Source: a bacterium
GTDB taxonomy: Bacteria; JAHJDO01
Direction of reading: 5' to 3'
Assembly: GCA_043824255.1 (NCBI GenBank)
Contig: JBDRTG010000047.1
Span: 99,528 to 163,527, forward strand
DNA length: 64,000 nucleotides
Position 1 is the stretch's first letter. The number at the start of each line of letters is the position of its first letter. Shown one piece after another: positions 1,204 through 50,748 of this stretch. The notes beneath the pieces were generated by a model. It had not been told where the DNA came from. It saw only the letters and a list, made by a program, of their open reading frames with translations, and ran no database searches. The position numbers were made by a program, and so were the translations under genes.

Positions 1204-2910
1204 TTACTCAGACGTTACGCGCAAAACTTCTTCTATGGTAGTCGTGCCCTTTTTAATTAGATCTATACCGCTTTCCTGCAATGTTCTCATTCCGCCTTTT
1301 ACAGCAGCTTCCTTAATCTCACCTGAAGTGGCCTTGTTCATAATTAGTTGCTTGATCTCATCATCTATCTTTAGTATTTCAACAACAGCAACTCTGCCTT
1401 TGTATCCAGTGTCATTACAAAGCTCGCAGCCCTTTCCTTTATATATTGTTAAATCTGATATTTTGGAAATTGGCTGTTGCAGAACATGGGCAAAATTCTC
1501 TTTTGCCTTTTCCTGCAGATCAATTTTTTCTTTGCAGTTTTCGCATATTTTTCGCATGAGTCTCTGCGCAGCCACCATTATTACGGAAGATGAGAGAAGA
1601 AACGGCTCAATCCCCATATCTATCAACCTTGTAATTGCTCCGGGAGCATCATTGGTGTGCAAAGTGCTGAAGACCAAATGACCTGTCAGAGCGGATTTTA
1701 TCGCAATATCAGCAGTTTCAAAATCCCTTATCTCTCCAACCATTATAATATCAGGATCCTGCCTTAATATAGATCGTAAGCCGCCGGCAAATGTCAGACC
1801 TATATCTGAGTGAGCTTGCACCTGATTGATTCCCTTTAGCTGATATTCTACAGGATCCTCAACTGTAATAATATTCTTAGTTGGTGTATTTATTTTGCTT
1901 AACGCAGAATAAAGCGTTGTGGTTTTACCACTACCTGTCGGTCCGGTTAGAAGGATCATTCCATGCGGTCTGGAAATAGATTCTGTAAATATTTCCAGCT
2001 CTTTTTCTCCAAATCCTAATTTCTCCAGATTCAGTGTTAAACTGCTCTTATCCAGAATACGCAATACCACCTTTTCCCCAAAAATTATTGGCAGAATTGA
2101 TACGCGAAAGTCTATTTCCTTATTATTCAATACAATCCTCATACGACCATCCTGCGGAAGCCTTCGCTCTGCTATATCCAGATTGGACATAATCTTTATT
2201 CTGGAGATTAGCGCAGCCTGAAGTTTTTTAGGTGGAGACAACCTCTCGTAAAGAACACCGTCAATGCGATAGCGGATGCGCAATGCCTTATCCTCCGGTT
2301 CAATATGAATATCGCTTGCTTTCTCCTTAATTGCCTGAGCGAGAATAAAATTAACCATTTTTACAACTGGAGCTTCCTCAGTTTCCCTTAAGAGTTTTTC
2401 TAAATCTAGTTCTTCCCTTTTCTCAGCAGGTTCCTTAATATCAATGTCCCTTAAAATCTCTTTCATATCAAAAGATACTTCATAATACTGGTCAATAGCA
2501 TTGAGAATATCCTTTTCTGTGGCTATTACAGGATCTATCTCGTATCCGGTAGTGCTTTTTAAATCGTCTGTAGCAAACACATTAAGAGGATCCAGCATGG
2601 CAATCGTAAGGGTTTTTCCTATCTTAGAGATTGGAATAATGGAATACTTTTTGGCAATTGTCTTCGGTATTGTTTCTATAACCTCTTTTGAAATTTTAAA
2701 TTTTGAAAGATTTATCGGAGGGATATTTAGTTGCTCGCTTAAGCACGCCATAAGGGTCTTCTCAGTAGCAAAGCCTTTTTTATAAATAATCCGGCTTAAA
2801 CTGCCCCCTTTTTCCCTTTGCTCTTGGAGTGCCTCTTTTAACTGTTCCTCTGTAATTATTCCTCCATCAAGCAGAATTCTTGACAGGGTGTCCTTTAAAG
2901 ACATAATCAT
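1204..2910 (-). CDS. pilB: Type IV pilus assembly / type II secretion ATPase (GspE/PilB family) with an N-terminal MshEN-like (T2SSE_N) domain
   Basis: 568 aa. It carries a Walker A motif (GPTGSGKTTTLYSAL), Asp/His boxes and a tetracysteine zinc motif (CENC...CELC). The N-terminus (LSRILLDGGIITEEQLKEALQEQ) matches the MshEN c-di-GMP-binding motif pattern. Confidence 0.9.
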   Translation of the reverse strand: MIMSLKDTLSRILLDGGIITEEQLKEALQEQREKGGSLSRIIYKKGFATEKTLMACLSEQLNIPPINLSKFKISKEVIETIPKTIAKKYSIIPISKIGKTLTIAMLDPLNVFATDDLKSTTGYEIDPVIATEKDILNAIDQYYEVSFDMKEILRDIDIKEPAEKREELDLEKLLRETEEAPVVKMVNFILAQAIKEKASDIHIEPEDKALRIRYRIDGVLYERLSPPKKLQAALISRIKIMSNLDIAERRLPQDGRMRIVLNNKEIDFRVSILPIIFGEKVVLRILDKSSLTLNLEKLGFGEKELEIFTESISRPHGMILLTGPTGSGKTTTLYSALSKINTPTKNIITVEDPVEYQLKGINQVQAHSDIGLTFAGGLRSILRQDPDIIMVGEIRDFETADIAIKSALTGHLVFSTLHTNDAPGAITRLIDMGIEPFLLSSSVIMVAAQRLMRKICENCKEKIDLQEKAKENFAHVLQQPISKISDLTIYKGKGCELCNDTGYKGRVAVVEILKIDDEIKQLIMNKATSGEIKEAAVKGGMRTLQESGIDLIKKGTTTIEEVLRVTSE

Positions 2911-3440
2911 AATTTTTCTTTATTTTCCTTTTCTCTCACTAACTGCTTAAAGTCAACATCTGTCATATATTCTTCTGTGGTTCTGGTGATTTTCTTACGC
3001 TTCCCTGGGCCAAAATAACGAGTAATAATATCTTCAATATCCTCTCCCCCACTGACAAAGATTCTCACACTGGAGTTAGTGGCAATCTTTACATCCTCAA
3101 TTGCAGCATCGTTTAGCGGGTCAGCCATGGCTAATACTATGATATTATCCATTTTATCTATAGGAATTAGGTGATAATGCCTTATGATTGATTCCGGAAT
3201 TAACTTGAGTATATCCTGATCAATCTCATAGTTTTTCAAAGGGAGATATGGGAATCCAAACTGAGAAGTAAGGGCGTTAACCACCTGTTCCTCAGTCGCA
3301 GATCCCAGGCTGACTAAAATCTGACCCAGAAAACCACCCTTTAGCTCCTGAATTTTCAATGCTTCATCCAGTTGTCGTTCCGTAATAACATCTCTCTCTA
3401 TAAGTATCTTTCCGAGTCGTTTTCTAATAGTTCTTGACAT
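2907..3440 (-). CDS. Stand-alone T2SSE_N / MshEN-type domain protein, a predicted c-di-GMP binder
   Basis: 177 aa. It has two tandem motifs, RLGKILIERDVITERQLDEALKIQ and LGQILVSLGSATEEQVVNALTSQ, that resemble the 24-aa MshEN c-di-GMP motif. Its stop overlaps the pilB start by 4 bp. Confidence 0.6.
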   Translation of the reverse strand: MSRTIRKRLGKILIERDVITERQLDEALKIQELKGGFLGQILVSLGSATEEQVVNALTSQFGFPYLPLKNYEIDQDILKLIPESIIRHYHLIPIDKMDNIIVLAMADPLNDAAIEDVKIATNSSVRIFVSGGEDIEDIITRYFGPGKRKKITRTTEEYMTDVDFKQLVREKENKEKL

Positions 3441-43979: not shown

Positions 43980-44915
43980 TTATTGAACCTTTGTCCCGCA
44001 TTTTGGACAAAACTTAGTTCCTGGCTTGAGAGACGCGCTACATTTCGAACATGTTATGCCCTGAATTTTCTTTCCGCATTCCGGACAGAATACTGCACCA
44101 GGAGACACTTCTGCATTACAATATGGACACTCTTCAAGAGCAGCCTGTGGAATTTCTGCGCCACAACTCGGGCAGAATTTTGTTCCTTCCTTGGCCTTAG
44201 TTCCGCACTTGGGACAACTAACCATCACAGTGCCAGCATCCAGCAAATTCTGACAATGCGCCTGAACCTTTACAACAATATCATCAATTGCCTTCTGCGT
44301 TGCCTCTCCCATAGGAGTCTTCTTAAAACCGCCAAAACTTACTCCAAGACTTTTTGCACCAGGAAGAGGTATAGCAGCTCCCAGGCTTAGCCCCCTTCTT
44401 TTTGCCTCTCCCCTAAACCTGAGTGTTTGCATTTCTGAAGTCTCAGCATTTACAATCTTTATTATTCCGGCAACTATTGCAGTTTTAGTATCTCCACCAA
44501 TAGAATACCCTCCAAAGCTCACTCCTCCACCCATGCCCTTCTGTGAATACTCGAACACTGTAATCACTCCATTAAGAATTATCTGTGCTCCTTTAATCTT
44601 TCCAATTTTTGCCTTTGTTTTTTTGCTTACTCTTCCGCTTGCCCCAAGATCCTGCTCACTAATTATATCCTGCACATCTATTCTGCTCATAACAGAAAAC
44701 CGTCCAGTCTCTGTTAGGGCACTTTCCAGCATATCAGCCATTCCAGTTCCCATGTTTAACTCAGATTTCCTCCAATAATCAGTTCCTGGAGCATCTTTTG
44801 CAGTGAATTTACTTACGGCCACACGCACCTTTTCCGCATACACAGGGCTTGAAAACGAGACAGCAACAAACAATAAAGCCAAGATAACAACTAATGACTT
44901 CTCTATGCACTTCAT
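43980..44915 (-). CDS. Exported CsgG-like (curli-transport / LpoB-like fold) protein fused to three C-terminal Cys4 zinc-ribbon repeats
   Basis: A signal peptide is present. KVRVAVSKFTAKD...LESALTETGRFSVMSRIDVQDIISEQDLGASGRV matches the CsgG-family core. The C-terminus has three CPKCGTK...FCPxCG repeats. Confidence 0.5.
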   Translation of the reverse strand: MKCIEKSLVVILALLFVAVSFSSPVYAEKVRVAVSKFTAKDAPGTDYWRKSELNMGTGMADMLESALTETGRFSVMSRIDVQDIISEQDLGASGRVSKKTKAKIGKIKGAQIILNGVITVFEYSQKGMGGGVSFGGYSIGGDTKTAIVAGIIKIVNAETSEMQTLRFRGEAKRRGLSLGAAIPLPGAKSLGVSFGGFKKTPMGEATQKAIDDIVVKVQAHCQNLLDAGTVMVSCPKCGTKAKEGTKFCPSCGAEIPQAALEECPYCNAEVSPGAVFCPECGKKIQGITCSKCSASLKPGTKFCPKCGTKVQ

Positions 44916-45077
44916 ACCAAAATTCCTCCTTTTTTATCTATTAATATTATAGATTATATATAATTATATATAACATTGCATCATGATTTTTGTCAAGCCA
45001 CTGTTATGGCAAAATGGACAAAATAAATTGACTACGGATATATCTTATGATAGCCTTGCGTTAAAGAACTAAACAGT

Positions 45078-45160
45078 ACCGGGAGCGAGATTTGAACTCG
45101 CACAGGATTTCTCCCACTAGCCCCTCAAGCTAGCGTGTCTGCCAATTTCACCATCCCGGC
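45078..45160 (-). tRNA. tRNA-Leu (anticodon GAG)
   Basis: The reverse complement is GCCGGGATGGTGAAATTGGCAGACACGCTAGCTTGAGGGGCTAGTGGGAGAAATCCTGTGCGAGTTCAAATCTCGCTCCCGGTA. It has a long variable arm. Confidence 0.75.
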
Positions 45161-47037: not shown

Positions 47038-48615
47038 ATGCAAGATTTGATGACAATTAAAGATGCAAGCATATGGGCATCCAAACATATAAGCAAGGAT
47101 GTTACTCCATCAAATATATCTTATTTAATTCAATACGGCAGAATTTCTAAAAATGGAGATAATGGAAGTGCTTTTGTTAATAGGTATGATTTAGAAAAAT
47201 ATTACAAGTCGCATCTTGAAACTAAAGAAGATAGATGGAAGAAACAACTTGGAGATGATTTAAATTGGAAATTATCTTTTTCTGAATACAAAGAGTCAGA
47301 AACAACTAAACATGTTCATAGACTACATCCATACAAAGGTAAATTTATTCCGCAATTGGTGGAATATTTTTTAGATCGACACACAGATAAATTTAAAAAT
47401 GGAGTTTTTTTTAATCCAGGTGATATTATCTTAGATCCTTTTTGCGGCAGCGGAACAACTCTTGTCCAAGCAAATGAATTAGGCCTAAATTCTGTTGGAA
47501 TTGATATTTCAGCTTTTAACGCCTTTATAAGCAATGTTAAAGTTGGAAAATACGATATTGATGATATTAGAAATACAGCAAATGAAATCACACAAAATCT
47601 TAAGATATTTCTACAAGAGAAAAATAATGTTAAATTTGAAGATGAATTATTGAGTGAACTTAAAATATTTAATAATAAATTTTTCCCGTCCCCTGAATTT
47701 AAACACAAAGTAAGACAAAAAGTAATTGATGAAAAATTTTATGGAAAGCAAAAATCTGATGAATTTTCGGAAATTTATTATAAGCTCATTGAGAAATACA
47801 ATATTTCACTTAGGCAGAAACGTAATGATTTGTTTCTTGATAAATGGTTTTTAAAGGTTGTAATGGATGAAATCAATTTTGTTTTTCAACAAATAAAGCC
47901 AATTAAAAACTTAGAAACAAAAAAAATTCTTGCTCTTGTTTTGAGTCGCACAATTCGATCCTGCAGAGCAACTACACATTCAGATTTAGGCACTTTAAAA
48001 GAACCCGTGACGTCCACCTATTATTGCAAAAAACATGGAAAGATATGCAAACCGTTATTTTCTATTTTAAGTTGGTGGCAAAGTTACGTTCAAGATACTA
48101 TCAAAAGAATTAATCAATTTGACAAACTACGTACTAAAACCTTTCAAAACTGTTTAACAGGAGACAGTAGAACAATAAATGTTTTTGATGAATTAGAAAA
48201 AAAATATCCTGCATTTGGAAAATTAGCTAAAGAAAACAAAATAGCTGGAATATTTTCCAGTCCTCCCTATGTAGGGTTAATAGATTATCATGAACAACAT
48301 GCGTATTCGTACGATTTATTTGGATTTGAAAGAAAAGATGAATTAGAAATAGGTCCTTTATGCAAAGGACAAGGGTTAGAAGCGCGAAAATCTTATATCA
48401 AAGGTATTTCTGATGTTTTGAATAACTGTAAGCAATTTTTGAAACAAGGTTATGATGTGTTTTTGGTAGCAAATGATAAGTATGGTCTTTATTCACAAAT
48501 TGCTGAACTATCTAACATGAAAATTGTAAATGAGTATAAAAGACCTGTTTTGAATAGAGTTGAAAAAGACAGATCAGCTTATGCTGAAATAATATTTCAT
48601 ATGAAGGAAAAGTAA
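47038..48615 (+). CDS. Putative N4-cytosine/N6-adenine DNA methyltransferase with an N-terminal HTH-like region. It lies in a low-GC islet.
   Basis: DPFCGSGTT is motif I (FxGxG) and SSPPY is motif IV. A Cys-rich insert lies between them. Confidence 0.6.
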   Translation: MQDLMTIKDASIWASKHISKDVTPSNISYLIQYGRISKNGDNGSAFVNRYDLEKYYKSHLETKEDRWKKQLGDDLNWKLSFSEYKESETTKHVHRLHPYKGKFIPQLVEYFLDRHTDKFKNGVFFNPGDIILDPFCGSGTTLVQANELGLNSVGIDISAFNAFISNVKVGKYDIDDIRNTANEITQNLKIFLQEKNNVKFEDELLSELKIFNNKFFPSPEFKHKVRQKVIDEKFYGKQKSDEFSEIYYKLIEKYNISLRQKRNDLFLDKWFLKVVMDEINFVFQQIKPIKNLETKKILALVLSRTIRSCRATTHSDLGTLKEPVTSTYYCKKHGKICKPLFSILSWWQSYVQDTIKRINQFDKLRTKTFQNCLTGDSRTINVFDELEKKYPAFGKLAKENKIAGIFSSPPYVGLIDYHEQHAYSYDLFGFERKDELEIGPLCKGQGLEARKSYIKGISDVLNNCKQFLKQGYDVFLVANDKYGLYSQIAELSNMKIVNEYKRPVLNRVEKDRSAYAEIIFHMKEK

Positions 48616-48616
48616 A

Positions 48617-49093
48617 ATGGCATTATCAAACAATCAAAAGCAAAAAATAGAAGAAGAAATAAAGGAAGTTTTAAAAGCGACAGCAGAAAATGGCGAATTC
48701 CAAAAATCAGGAAACATTGCAGATTTCTATATGAAACGAAATGGGCAGGAATACTATTTTGAGATCAAAACAGTAAAGCCAAATATTGATGTGTTTGAAA
48801 AAAGTAAAACAAAATTATTGGAATGGGTTGCCAGAAAAAGAATGCCTATCAAGGTATACCTTGCATTTCCTTATAATCCATATCATCCAAAACCATATCA
48901 TCGTTTTACGGAAGTTGGAATGATGGATTCACAAAATGATTTTTTAGTTGGCAACGAATATTGGGATTTTATCGGTGGGGAAAACACCTTTCCTGAATTA
49001 TTAAAAACATTTGATGTAGTAGGAAAAAATTTCAAAGAACAATTGAATAAAAAATTTAAACAAATAGCAAAAGAAAAGTTGGATTCCTATTAA
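48617..49093 (+). CDS. Small hypothetical protein with a PD-(D/E)xK-like motif, a candidate cognate restriction endonuclease
   Basis: It is 158 aa. It has IADFYMKRNGQEYYFEIKTVK, with D followed 13 residues later by ExK. It starts 1 bp after the methyltransferase stop. Confidence 0.4.
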   Translation: MALSNNQKQKIEEEIKEVLKATAENGEFQKSGNIADFYMKRNGQEYYFEIKTVKPNIDVFEKSKTKLLEWVARKRMPIKVYLAFPYNPYHPKPYHRFTEVGMMDSQNDFLVGNEYWDFIGGENTFPELLKTFDVVGKNFKEQLNKKFKQIAKEKLDSY

Positions 49094-49146: not shown

Positions 49147-50748
49147 ATGAAAAAGATAACTGCATCAGTTTTGCTTATTTTATTTTGCTGTATAACGTCA
49201 ATAGAAGCAAGAACCTTTAAGGTTGCAAGTTATAACGTTGAAAACTTTTTCGACCTTAATAAGGACGGGACCGAATACACCGAGTATATTCCGAACACCG
49301 GCTATGGTTGGACTAAGAATATTGCAGACATCAAATACACCAATATTGCCATGGTGATAAAGGATTTGAAAGCTGACGTTGTCGCATTGCAAGAGGTTGA
49401 ATCCAAAAGCTCTCTTACTCTTTTACGTAACAGACTGAAAGACTTCGGGTTGGATTATCCTTATTTTGAAATTGCGGATTCCAAGAGTACGACTGTGAAG
49501 TGCGCTGTTCTGTCCAAGTTTCCAATTATAGAGAAAGAAGAAATACGGGTTGATAGTGAATCTGCTAGAAATATTCTTAAAATAACTCTTGATATTGATG
49601 GGAATCGTCTCATCCTGTTTATCAATCACTGGAAATCGAAAGGAGGTCATGAAAGCTGGAGGATAGCTTATGCTAAAAAGCTCAAGGAAGATATTGACAA
49701 ACTAAAAGATGATGTTGACTTTATACTGGTAGGTGATTTTAATTCAAACTATAACGAATACAAAACCTTCAGAGATGAAGGCAGGTTGAACGACACCGCT
49801 GGCATTACAGGAATCAATCATATTCTCAGGACTGTCAAAGATTCTGAAATGGTAAATGAACAGATTTTGACAACACAGGTCTCGAATGAGTATTTGTATG
49901 ACTTGTGGCTTGAAATCAATAGGATTAGACGCTGGTCATACAATTTTTTCGGTAACAAAAACAGCCTAGATAACATTATCCTACCCAAAGCACTTTACGA
50001 TGGCAACGGAATCTCTTATGTGGATAATTCGTTTGATAAGTTCGATCCTGACTATCTGTTCAAAGAGGATGCCGCCGTCTATCGCTGGCAAAGGGCAAAA
50101 AGTGGCAGGGGCAAGCACCTGGGTGAAGGATACTCGGATCACTTACCGATTTTTGCGTATTTTTCCACTGAACCTTTCTGTTTTAAAAAGCTTGACACCT
50201 TCCCCGATGATATCACTCCTTTAAAGTTGCAAAAAAGGGCTATCTCTGACCTTTACACTTCAAAAATTGGAAATGTCAACTACAGTCTCGAACACTGTAT
50301 CGTTATCTACAAATATGGAAATGATGTTGTCATCAAACAAAAAAATGGCCGAGCAATCTTTATATACAAAGCAGGGAGAAACATGGAGTATGGTAAAGAA
50401 TACTACTTAACCGTAAAAATACTGCATGACTATCACGGGCTTCGTGAAATCACGGTAATTGATGATATTAAAGAGATTAGAAAAGCGGCTGATTTTACTT
50501 CTCATTTGTTGAATGATCCTTCGGCTGATTTCTCTGAACCGGGTCTTCAGAGCGAAGTCATACCAGAAGCTGAAGGTATTTATAAACGAGGATATTTTTA
50601 TTATGGCAGTAACAGGAAAATTAAATTGTACTTTAAGGATAAAAAGTTAAGACCGAAAAACAATTCAAAAATTATACTGAAACAAGTAAGAATAGGATGC
50701 TATAAACACCCTCAAATTGTTATAGAAAAAAAGGCGCAAATTAAGTAG
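49147..50748 (+). CDS. Secreted endonuclease/exonuclease/phosphatase (EEP, DNase I-like) family protein with an uncharacterised C-terminal domain
   Basis: A signal peptide is present. The EEP hallmarks are FKVASYNVENFFD, VVALQEV, LVGDFN and YSDHLP. Confidence 0.75.
   Translation: MKKITASVLLILFCCITSIEARTFKVASYNVENFFDLNKDGTEYTEYIPNTGYGWTKNIADIKYTNIAMVIKDLKADVVALQEVESKSSLTLLRNRLKDFGLDYPYFEIADSKSTTVKCAVLSKFPIIEKEEIRVDSESARNILKITLDIDGNRLILFINHWKSKGGHESWRIAYAKKLKEDIDKLKDDVDFILVGDFNSNYNEYKTFRDEGRLNDTAGITGINHILRTVKDSEMVNEQILTTQVSNEYLYDLWLEINRIRRWSYNFFGNKNSLDNIILPKALYDGNGISYVDNSFDKFDPDYLFKEDAAVYRWQRAKSGRGKHLGEGYSDHLPIFAYFSTEPFCFKKLDTFPDDITPLKLQKRAISDLYTSKIGNVNYSLEHCIVIYKYGNDVVIKQKNGRAIFIYKAGRNMEYGKEYYLTVKILHDYHGLREITVIDDIKEIRKAADFTSHLLNDPSADFSEPGLQSEVIPEAEGIYKRGYFYYGSNRKIKLYFKDKKLRPKNNSKIILKQVRIGCYKHPQIVIEKKAQIK

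Follow-up and report, generated by a model that had tools for sequence, protein, structure and literature searches.

The window examined here, by which is meant the whole stretch of 64,000 nucleotides that was analysed, carries two adjacent genes on its forward strand. The first (M; 47038–48615, + strand) codes for a full-length and apparently intact DNA amino-methyltransferase of the N6/N4 type (525 aa). The second (R; 48617–49093, + strand) codes for a protein of 158 aa which is described as the remnant of a restriction endonuclease on the basis of a partial match to the PF09520 profile and of its alignment to homologs of 260 aa. Both reading frames, and the single nucleotide that separates them, are exactly as given in the first-pass annotation of this DNA. 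Read directly from the sequence, the M/R junction (48604–48619, + strand) consists of a Shine-Dalgarno (SD)-like AAGGAA (48604–48609), the TAA stop codon of M (48613–48615), one A and the ATG start codon of R (48617–48619), an arrangement that is translationally coupled; spacing just as tight occurs in 29 of the 55 fully intact pairs of other genomes, as well as in the loci L001, L002 and L166.

The islet formed by these genes has a GC content of 29.5%, where the window averages 37.4% (sd 2.7%, 2056-bp windows; z = -2.9), and is the lowest-GC stretch of about 2 kb (2056-bp windows) within the 64-kb window, which bears out its earlier description as a low-GC islet. GC3 values are 0.20–0.25 in the islet genes versus 0.28–0.39 in neighbouring genes. 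The cassette is flanked by queF on one side and by a gene for a secreted nuclease on the other, and the gene order queECF-M-R-nuclease is common to the window and the syntenic relative L001. A PDH E2 gene is also a neighbour of the locus in the window.

A tRNA-Leu(gag) gene lies at 45076–45160, 1.9 kb upstream of the islet, in keeping with the distance of about 2 kb reported before. It was considered as an integration site and rejected, since the tRNA gene and queECF are found upstream in L001 too; their occurrence in the same place indicates a conserved backbone and provides no evidence of an integration site. As for target-site duplications, the sole repeat bracketing the islet is an 11-mer within the coding sequences of queF and the nuclease, at chance level. 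The promoter scan gave no enrichment of promoter-like sites (10 observed versus 12.7 expected), and the hairpins returned by the terminator scan are all inside coding sequence, with none between R and the nuclease gene. No empty (pre-insertion) site was recovered in a metagenome scan with the flanking nuclease (80 loci), and none of the flanking-nuclease loci at ≤77% identity in this set retains queF, M, R or the PDH E2 gene nearby.

The methyltransferase

M scores well above the cut-off of the N6_N4_Mtase profile PF01555 (60.6 bits, cut-off 26.7) and matches the PADLOC MTase_II profile PDLC03249 from end to end (residues 3–524, E = 2e-235). PF01555 represents the beta order, and only its C-terminal part matches, on residues 37–159 of M. 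Profile searches agree with the first-pass assignment in that M belongs with type II methyltransferases (PADLOC) and R matches type II endonuclease profiles (PF09520, PADLOC). The homologs of M are 525 aa long and 71–97% identical to it, one of them (75% identity) carrying the source name 'Modification methylase MjaII'. All family-invariant residues are present in the window protein (42 family members, down to 54% identity), and its dN/dS against L001 is 0.075; judged by this sequence comparison, M is under strong purifying selection.

The SAM-binding motif I, DPFCGSGTT (47434–47460, + strand; residues 133–141), is located directly after strand beta1 of the Rossmann fold, and the strand preceding it (E130–133) is present in the AF2 model of M (pLDDT 82.9). 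Across 42 sequences there is no variation at D133, P134, F135, G137, S138, G139 or T140, and alignment with PDB entries pairs the region with motif I of MboIIA, N4-cytosine methyltransferases, DpnA and CcrM. The catalytic motif IV, SPPY (48259–48270, + strand; residues 408–411), lies at the end of strand beta4 (E402–407 in the model), and S408, P409, P410 and Y411 are invariant in the family. Both motifs had been noticed in the first-pass annotation, and M possesses the SAM-binding and catalytic motifs expected of the methyltransferase of a type II restriction-modification (R-M) system. SPPY is the form of motif IV typical of N4-cytosine methyltransferases.

An internal insertion of about 190 aa (47557–48123, + strand; residues ~174–362), folded in the model as a helical bundle plus a beta-hairpin, separates strands beta2 and beta3. 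Its predicted secondary structure comprises H174–308, E328–330, E335–337 and H344–362, bounded by E151–156 and E370–374, and on the basis of the model this insertion is probably the target-recognition domain. A cluster of Cys and His residues (C309, H314, C330, H333 and C337; 47962–48048, + strand) surrounds the hairpin YYCKKHGKICKP (E328–330/E335–337) and is a putative metal-binding knuckle of the recognition domain. The Cys-rich insert had been regarded as unusual; its five residues are in fact invariant in two alignments (42 family members, down to 54% identity). The same holds for the motif order, also thought to be unusual, which is the linear alpha type (SAM-binding half, recognition domain, catalytic half) and is shared throughout the family: motif I is N-terminal (133–141), motif IV is C-terminal (408–411) and the domain of about 190 aa stands between them. 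A Foldseek search with the M model returned generic Rossmann methyltransferases alone, none at E ≤ 0.001, which is consistent with a split fold.

The endonuclease gene and its deletion

The small protein had been described as devoid of recognisable features other than a D...ExK stretch. It belongs to the PF09520 (RE_TdeIII) family by the curated threshold of that profile (123 bits, cut-off 27.2, E = 2e-35), of which it covers positions 105–242 only, out of 242; its matches to three PADLOC REase_II profiles are likewise confined to their C-terminal parts, and all R profiles are aligned to the C-terminal 55–60% only. The domain is incomplete, as residues ~10–114, including P34, F35, S54, T57, G60 and E65, are absent. 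Among the best 120 of 1166 R homologs nearly all have 260 aa, and the wider family ranges from 250 to 265 aa; the homologs are 72–93% identical across phyla, the closest listed one (P0001, 93% identical) having the NCBI name 'TdeIII family type II restriction endonuclease'. A length of 158 aa is called for just one further family member, P0106, which is the downstream part of a gene split by a frameshift. A cluster look-up yielded no names for the divergent representatives of the family. In the alignment the window protein corresponds to residues 1 to ~12 joined to residues ~115–260 of the 260-aa enzyme, so that M is accompanied by an endonuclease gene of 158 aa versus the 260 aa of a full-length cognate enzyme. 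The small size is not that of a fast-evolving mini-endonuclease; it results from a 306-bp in-frame deletion in an enzyme that is otherwise 72–93% conserved.

The retained PD-(D/E)xK core motif (48722–48769, + strand) is made up of D36 on strand beta2, which corresponds to D138 in the 260-aa form, and of E49-I-K51 on strand beta3, which corresponds to E151/K153. The spacing is D36-x12-E49-I-K51 and not D-x13-E-I-K as first stated; the stretch itself was correctly picked as the PD-(D/E)xK core and is conserved in the family (D138 in 82/86 sequences, D/E151 in 74/86, K153 in 65/86). Its strands in the intact-R model are E136–143 and E146–152. By profile, the D...EIK stretch aligns weakly to the D...EIK core of the PD-(D/E)xK nuclease 4ic1, and PDB sequence searches with R and with the family profile gave no significant match.

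The R gene of the window is exactly 306 bp (102 codons) shorter, in frame, than those of L001 and L166, which hold a 260-aa R at the same locus; the window and L001 share 87–97% nucleotide identity per gene. At the deletion junction lies the 13-nt repeat AAAAATAGAAGAA (48643–48655, + strand; encoding K-I-E-E), placed there by breakpoint mapping, of which one copy survives in the window and two copies, 306 nt apart, are found in the intact relatives. The breakpoint maps at gene positions 26–28 against L001 and 39 against L166, bracketing the repeat, and L166 bears the window's 5' copy and L001 the exact 3' copy. The junction reads CAAAAGCAAAAAATAGAAGAAGAAATAAAGG in the window, and tblastn places R residues 1–13 on 48617–48655 and residues 108–260 on 48632–49090, that is, on overlapping DNA. 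Within the 64-kb window the missing R segment was not found elsewhere, nor was any further homolog of R or M. The Logan assembly SRR26275509 is 100% identical over 7666 bp and contains the same deletion allele. Exact look-ups of R, M and QueF for strain-level variants gave one Logan contig only, with the same allele, and homolog searches, locus searches and exact look-ups did not find this allele in a second lineage.

What the deletion removes can be seen in the AF2 model of an intact R (pLDDT 92.5, pTM 0.88), a confident model with conserved D138, E151 and K153 whose top PDB match is the PD-(D/E)xK enzyme EcoO109I (probability 1.00, E = 7e-4, TM 0.51). The lost residues ~10–114 comprise most of H5–25, all of H34–40, H43–72, E78–84 and H91–105, and the start of H113–122; with them go most N-terminal helices, the long helix of the core, which bears E65, and the first strand of the core. 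E65 is Glu in 77/86 family members (90%), and 13 of the 42 positions conserved at ≥70% fall inside the deletion. In EcoO109I and AvaII a core-helix Glu/Asp, together with the PD aspartate, helps to hold the metal ion, and the minor groove is where long helices insert (PMC7337904); conservation and analogy with these two enzymes suggest a catalytic role for E65. The window protein keeps strands 2–4 and D...ExK without the first helix and strand, which leaves its own fold in doubt, and according to the model the 158-aa product most likely can neither fold into a functional endonuclease dimer nor cleave DNA. AF2 is unable to tell whether the truncated R folds.

The remnant displays no secondary decay: frame, start codon and SD are intact, its dN/dS against L001 is 0.08, and the sole clearly window-derived substitution is D113N. 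No relaxed selection was detected in the comparison with L001, which has low power (6 amino-acid differences), and the ratio spans the whole divergence from L001, presumably mostly pre-deletion, and is therefore powerless on retained function. The deletion looks recent; the undecayed state of the remnant fits a very recent deletion and equally fits continued constraint.

Origin and present state of the cassette

In 80 species-representative genomes M followed by R is almost always linked on one strand, and both genes are full-length in 55 of the 80. R has decayed with M kept independently elsewhere, for example by frameshift splitting in L167–L169 and L083 and by truncation in L082 and L034. 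Copies of the cassette with 57–90% identity are spread over groups as far apart as Campylobacterota, Patescibacteria and DPANN archaea, and in 40/42 hosts they are AT-richer than their flanks; such wide mobility is typical of R-M systems. Plasmid and phage collections contained distant family members only (27–35% identity), and no vector was identified in them.

The target of the cassette is probably GGNCC, methylated at the exocyclic N4 of cytosine, a specificity in which GGNCC is taken from family names only. M.MjaII is listed with the site GGNCC and, in a review table, as an m5C enzyme (PMC11033074). The m5C listing is at odds with the N6_N4 amino-methyltransferase fold and with SPPY as motif IV. 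GGNCC sites are not depleted in the window (60 observed versus 67.8 expected, ratio 0.89, z = -0.9), a count which is uninformative and leaves the specificity without a signature in this DNA.

The locus is quite likely a decaying type II system of the MjaII/TdeIII type, in which M now effectively stands alone as a methyltransferase, next to an endonuclease remnant without activity. The first-pass proposal of a type II R-M system stands as far as ancestry is concerned, given the profile matches of M and R and their linkage in 80 genomes; it most likely fails for present function, as part of the R core including E65 is deleted. The nuclease activity of R has apparently been lost, and the locus most likely no longer works as a restriction system. 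A type II cassette that spread horizontally would already have been carried by the ancestor which this lineage shares with two sister lineages. R would subsequently have lost 306 bp in frame, likely through slippage or illegitimate recombination between the two copies of the 13-nt repeat, giving a 158-aa product that would retain the start codon, the ribosome-binding site and the D...ExK strands. M most likely still methylates its target as a solitary ('orphan') enzyme, and with methylation continued the loss of R would be harmless to the host.

It is highly improbable that the pair forms a complete and working type II R-M system with a naturally small PD-(D/E)xK endonuclease of 158 aa: the ORF is intact, coupled to M and without excess amino-acid change, and D...ExK is kept, but nearly all of the best 120 of 1166 homologs have about 260 aa in a wider family of 250–265 aa, P0106 is half of a split gene, the R profiles align at the C-terminal part only, and the protein equals the two ends of a 260-aa enzyme fused at a 13-nt repeat and lacks the conserved E65 as well as the helix and the first strand of the core. 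It is also very unlikely that faulty assembly or a minority variant accounts for the deletion in an organism that actually has an intact 260-aa R and a working system. The data are metagenomic and the one other record with the allele possibly comes from the same or a related sample; however, a 13-nt repeat is shorter than the usual assembly k-mers, so that its collapse is not expected, the deletion keeps the frame exactly and has microhomology at its borders, as real deletions do, and the Logan contig, a separate assembly, shows no difference from the window over 7.7 kb that include the junction. A second intact R may occur elsewhere in the genome, beyond the 64-kb window.

Preservation of the frame, start codon, SD and coupling, the dN/dS of 0.08 with a single lineage-specific change, and the stable length of the product of an in-frame deletion, unlike that of a frameshift, would suit a remnant kept for a new, non-cutting role, for example as a DNA-binding or dominant-negative subunit poisoning incoming full-length copies of this enzyme or as a regulator of M. 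This is nevertheless very unlikely, considering that one third of deletions are in frame by chance, that the dN/dS covers, presumably, mostly pre-deletion divergence and has no power, that the same allele was not found in a second lineage and that half of the fold core is missing. It is scarcely probable that the remnant is a selected product which, for example, binds GGNCC or heterodimerises with the full-length enzyme and so guards against re-invasion by the cassette or post-segregational killing; if it were, the 13-nt repeat would be a built-in off-switch for the endonuclease.

Read as a decaying system, the locus offers a clean and datable example of R-M decay, in which a microhomology-mediated in-frame deletion would have disabled R while M stayed constrained, and the intact sister alleles that persist at this locus can be compared with it. 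In annotation, the fitting name for the small ORF is truncated TdeIII/MjaII-family endonuclease and not novel mini-nuclease, and that for M is probable solitary GGNCC (m4C) enzyme.

Comparison with known systems

This kind of gene pair is already known. The window is related to MjaII and TdeIII at the family level, as judged from profiles and names. MjaII (MJ1449) of Methanocaldococcus jannaschii is an active enzyme (PMC2615612), and PF09520 is listed as 'MjaII' among the PD-(D/E)XK families (PMC3424549). The MjaII system and the window cassette alike are type II systems of two genes, which code for an amino-type methyltransferase and for an R belonging to PF09520; the MjaII endonuclease is active, whereas the window R is without 102 of 260 residues. 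TdeIII (TDE0911) of Treponema denticola, the name-giver of PF09520 and a member of the same endonuclease family, is a real barrier to transformation (PMC12878829), and TdeIII-like M and R pairs move between phyla, for instance into Helicobacter pylori PeCan4 (PMC3467074). Compared with TdeIII, the window copy is a deletion derivative.

The structure search with the intact-R model gave one significant match, which is also its best, EcoO109I (PDB 1wtd). The two share the PD-(D/E)xK fold, a long helix in the core and a related target built on GGNCC; EcoO109I cuts RG/GNCCY (PMC7337904), and its relative AvaII cuts G/GWCC. At 12% identity to the intact R and with no detectable sequence homology, EcoO109I represents a separate sequence family.

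Loss of R is an ordinary stage of R-M decay. Such decay usually removes R before M, the loss of M first being lethal. Like the orphan methyltransferases that derive from R-M decay, the window combines an intact, constrained M with a disabled R; it differs from the typical cases in being at an early stage, with R still open, in frame, coupled to M and without secondary decay.

Organization of the islet and its methyltransferase

The low-GC islet (47038–49093) is by descent a type II restriction-modification (R-M) cassette comprising two forward-strand genes, a DNA methyltransferase gene (M; 47038–48615, 525 aa) and a small ORF (48617–49093, 158 aa), both located exactly where the first-pass annotation had placed them. 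One base separates the stop codon of M (TAA, 48613–48615) from the ATG of the small ORF, which is preceded 8–13 nt upstream by the Shine-Dalgarno-like sequence AAGGAA. The low-GC character and the nearby tRNA-Leu reported on first reading were also borne out: GC content is 29.5% vs. 37.4% for the window (z = -2.9 against same-size windows), the lowest of any 2-kb stretch in the 64 kb, GC3 is 0.20–0.25 compared with 0.28–0.39 in neighbouring genes, and tRNA-Leu(gag) lies 1.9 kb upstream.

The methyltransferase scores above threshold with Pfam N6_N4_Mtase and aligns over its full length with a PADLOC type II methyltransferase profile (E = 2e-235). It retains all residues that are invariant across the 42 family sequences compared, which extend down to 54% identity, including DPFCGSGTT (133–141), SPPY (408–411), C309, H314, C330, H333, and C337; the Cys-rich insert, earlier considered unusual, is thus a conserved family feature. 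In an AF2 model (pLDDT 82.9) this Cys/His set is located on and around a β-hairpin, a possible metal-binding knuckle, within a ~190-aa helical insertion between β2 and β3 of the Rossmann fold, which would represent the target-recognition domain. The order SAM-binding half, recognition domain and catalytic half is the linear α-type arrangement of the Malone classification; because of this order the β-ordered profile PF01555 covers only residues 37–159, PDB sequence matches are limited to motif I and Foldseek returns only generic Rossmann methyltransferases. The dN/dS between the window and L001, a syntenic MAG contig (GCA_018812485.1), is 0.075 for M and 0.16–0.25 for queE, queC, and queF, indicating strong purifying selection on M.

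The gene following the islet (49147–50748, +) codes for a 533-aa nuclease of the Exo_endo_phos/ExeM-NucH-like type whose N-terminus resembles a signal peptide; many metagenomic relatives align to residues 1–363 only, so that the C-terminal ~170 aa constitute a variable extension. On the other side, a 311-aa CsgG-like lipoprotein fused to several zinc-ribbon repeats (43980–44915, -) is replaced in L001 by an FHA/PilZ protein upstream of tRNA-Leu, which places a synteny break just upstream of the tRNA.

A 306-bp deletion in the endonuclease gene

The small ORF had been read as the 158-aa endonuclease of a candidate type II system, with no recognisable features other than D-x13-E-I-K. PF09520 (RE_TdeIII) is hit at E = 2e-35, although the match is confined to profile positions 105–242 of 242; three PADLOC type II endonuclease profiles likewise align in their C-terminal parts only. 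Among 5.8 billion proteins searched, 1166 relatives were recovered, the best 120 of which are 72–93% identical, nearly all exactly 260 aa long and distributed over many phyla; NCBI names these "TdeIII family type II restriction endonuclease." The motif does belong to the conserved core, with the spacing D36-x12-E49-I-K51 instead of x13. The system is therefore R-M by descent but most likely not in present function, since what remains of the 260-aa enzyme (R) in the small ORF is a deletion derivative.

Aligned with its homologs, the window protein opens with the true N-terminus of the family (MALSNNQKQKIEE) and then jumps to family residue ~115 (…EIKEVLK…). L001 carries, in order, tRNA-Leu, queE, queC, queF, M (525 aa), R (260 aa), the secreted nuclease gene and PDH genes, with per-gene nucleotide identities to the window of 87–97%, and compared with its R the window gene is shorter by exactly 306 bp (102 codons), in frame. 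In a third lineage (locus L166) queF sequence also precedes M and R is 260 aa long; the position of the secreted nuclease gene is occupied there by a 170-aa ORF of unknown function (2657–3169, +). Since the window's 5′ sequence CAAAAGCAAAAAATAGAAGAA is present in L166 and its exact 3′ sequence AAAAATAGAAGAAGAAATAAAGG in L001, the 13-nt repeat AAAAATAGAAGAA was very likely present twice in the ancestral allele, at a distance of 306 nt. Comparison with both loci locates the single remaining copy, the deletion junction, at 48643–48655 (+), a signature which suggests that slippage, or else illegitimate recombination, between short direct repeats removed the segment. The lost segment is encoded nowhere else in the 64-kb window.

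The consequences were evaluated on an AlphaFold2 model (pLDDT 92.5, pTM 0.88) of an intact 260-aa homolog 93% identical to the window protein (P0001), built from 86 aligned sequences of a family set of 655 diverse representatives (E ≤ 0.001; full length 250–265 aa). Its elements are helices 5–25, 34–40, and 43–72, strand 78–84 and helices 91–105 and 113–122, followed by strands 136–143 and 146–152, helix 159–176, strand 181–186 and C-terminal helices. Among solved structures, EcoO109I alone (1wtd_A; probability 1.00, E = 7e-4, TM 0.51) matches significantly; this PD-(D/E)xK enzyme cleaves RG/GNCCY (PMC7337904). According to the model, the deleted residues (~10–114) span the long helix 43–72, the first core strand 78–84 and three more helices; half of the fold around the D…ExK motif is missing. 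Of the 42 positions conserved in ≥70% of the family, 13 fall within the deletion (P34, F35, S54, T57, G60, and E65 are examples, the last being Glu in 77/86 members). In EcoO109I and AvaII an acidic residue of the core helix and the "PD" aspartate jointly help to hold a metal ion, and long helices reach into the minor groove of the DNA (PMC7337904); by analogy, E65 and helix 43–72 would perform these functions in intact R.

Alternative readings and age of the deletion

The 158-aa product is most likely inactive, judging from the alignment and the model, which would leave M as a solitary methyltransferase. That it is instead a working mini-endonuclease is extremely unlikely: the residues D36, E49, and K51 (family D138, D/E151, and K153, conserved in 82/86, 74/86, and 65/86 members) are retained, and this stretch aligns weakly, by profile comparison, with the D…EIK core of another PD-(D/E)xK nuclease, but the first core strand and E65 are gone. 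An assembly artefact or minority allele is also improbable; a Logan contig from a separate assembly (SRR26275509) matches the window at 100% over 7666 bp, junction included, and is the sole other record found with the exact window proteins.

Retention of the remnant for a new function is very unlikely, although its dN/dS over the retained codons (vs. L001) is 0.08 and signs of decay are absent. Of its six amino-acid differences from L001, only D113N is clearly window-derived when polarised with ten outgroups. The deletion is probably recent relative to the window/L001 split; continued constraint on the remnant would also be compatible with so few changes. Synonymous divergence is similar for M and R (0.19–0.25) and for queECF (0.22–0.38), so that the common ancestor of both lineages probably already carried the cassette.

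The cassette in other genomes and its target

Full-length M and R occur on one strand in 55 of 80 species-representative genomes (≤13 nt apart in 29 of the 55). Hosts include Campylobacterota, Cloacimonadota, Chloroflexota, Bacteroidota, Desulfobacterota, Patescibacteria, and DPANN archaea, with R 57–90% identical to P0001. In 40/42 hosts the cassette has a lower GC content than its flanks (mean 32.6% vs. 39.0%), as expected for a horizontally moving unit. In three assemblies a frameshift near codon 100 divides R into ORFs of 104/113 aa and 158 aa while the upstream M is intact (L167, 2030–2807; L168, 1864–2642; L169, 1462–2239; the downstream half is P0106), and L083 shows a similar frameshift (454–1232); these R genes of the family were inactivated independently of the window copy. 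R is also truncated in L082 and L034 and has an internal stop in L013, so that decay of R with M kept is recurrent in this MjaII/TdeIII-type family. Such loss is the usual origin of orphan methyltransferases.

Other arrangements were observed. Four genomes (L007, L019, L035, and L054) have a ~1.1-kb gene between M and R, tightly coupled to both, which may be a third component in some variants; in L007 (2865–3998, +) its product is 377 aa long, is Cys-rich in its C-terminal half and finds no match in Pfam. In L014 (3879–4783) and L055 (2720–3808) an intact 260-aa R is preceded by only the last 39–100 codons of its cognate M, with unrelated genes filling the rest of the M position in L014. Since these endonucleases appear unprotected, either their cognate M must be encoded elsewhere or R must be inactive.

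PF09520 is labelled "HinfI" in the precomputed Pfam annotation (PF09520.17) and "RE_TdeIII" in the Pfam-A copy scanned (PF09520.16), apparently a naming change between releases; whether HinfI (GANTC) is a true member bears on how far the family predicts specificity. The best guess for the target is GGNCC, given that the PD-(D/E)XK enzymes of PF09520 are listed under the family name "MjaII" (PMC3424549), M.MjaII is tabulated with GGNCC (PMC11033074), a homolog 75% identical to the window M bears the source name M.MjaII, and EcoO109I has a GGNCC core in its own target. R.MjaII (MJ1449) is active by experiment (PMC2615612). The same review table gives M.MjaII as m5C (PMC11033074), in conflict with the N6/N4 amino-methyltransferase fold and SPPY motif of the window M; either the entry is an error or it raises a question about the modified base. 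SPPY and the fold point to N4-methylcytosine as the product. With 60 occurrences observed vs. 67.8 expected, GGNCC shows no depletion in the window, so that the genome itself speaks neither for nor against this target. GATC is strongly under-represented in the window (1–64000; 115 vs. 210 expected, z = -6.6), possibly a trace of GATC-specific restriction, past or present, in the lineage; CTAG is also scarce (55 vs. 112 expected), and CCNGG, GTAC, and GGCC are mildly low.

The value of the locus lies in its correct annotation and in what appears to be a tidy case of microhomology-mediated inactivation of a restriction gene; it is a degenerate member of a well-known kind of R-M system.
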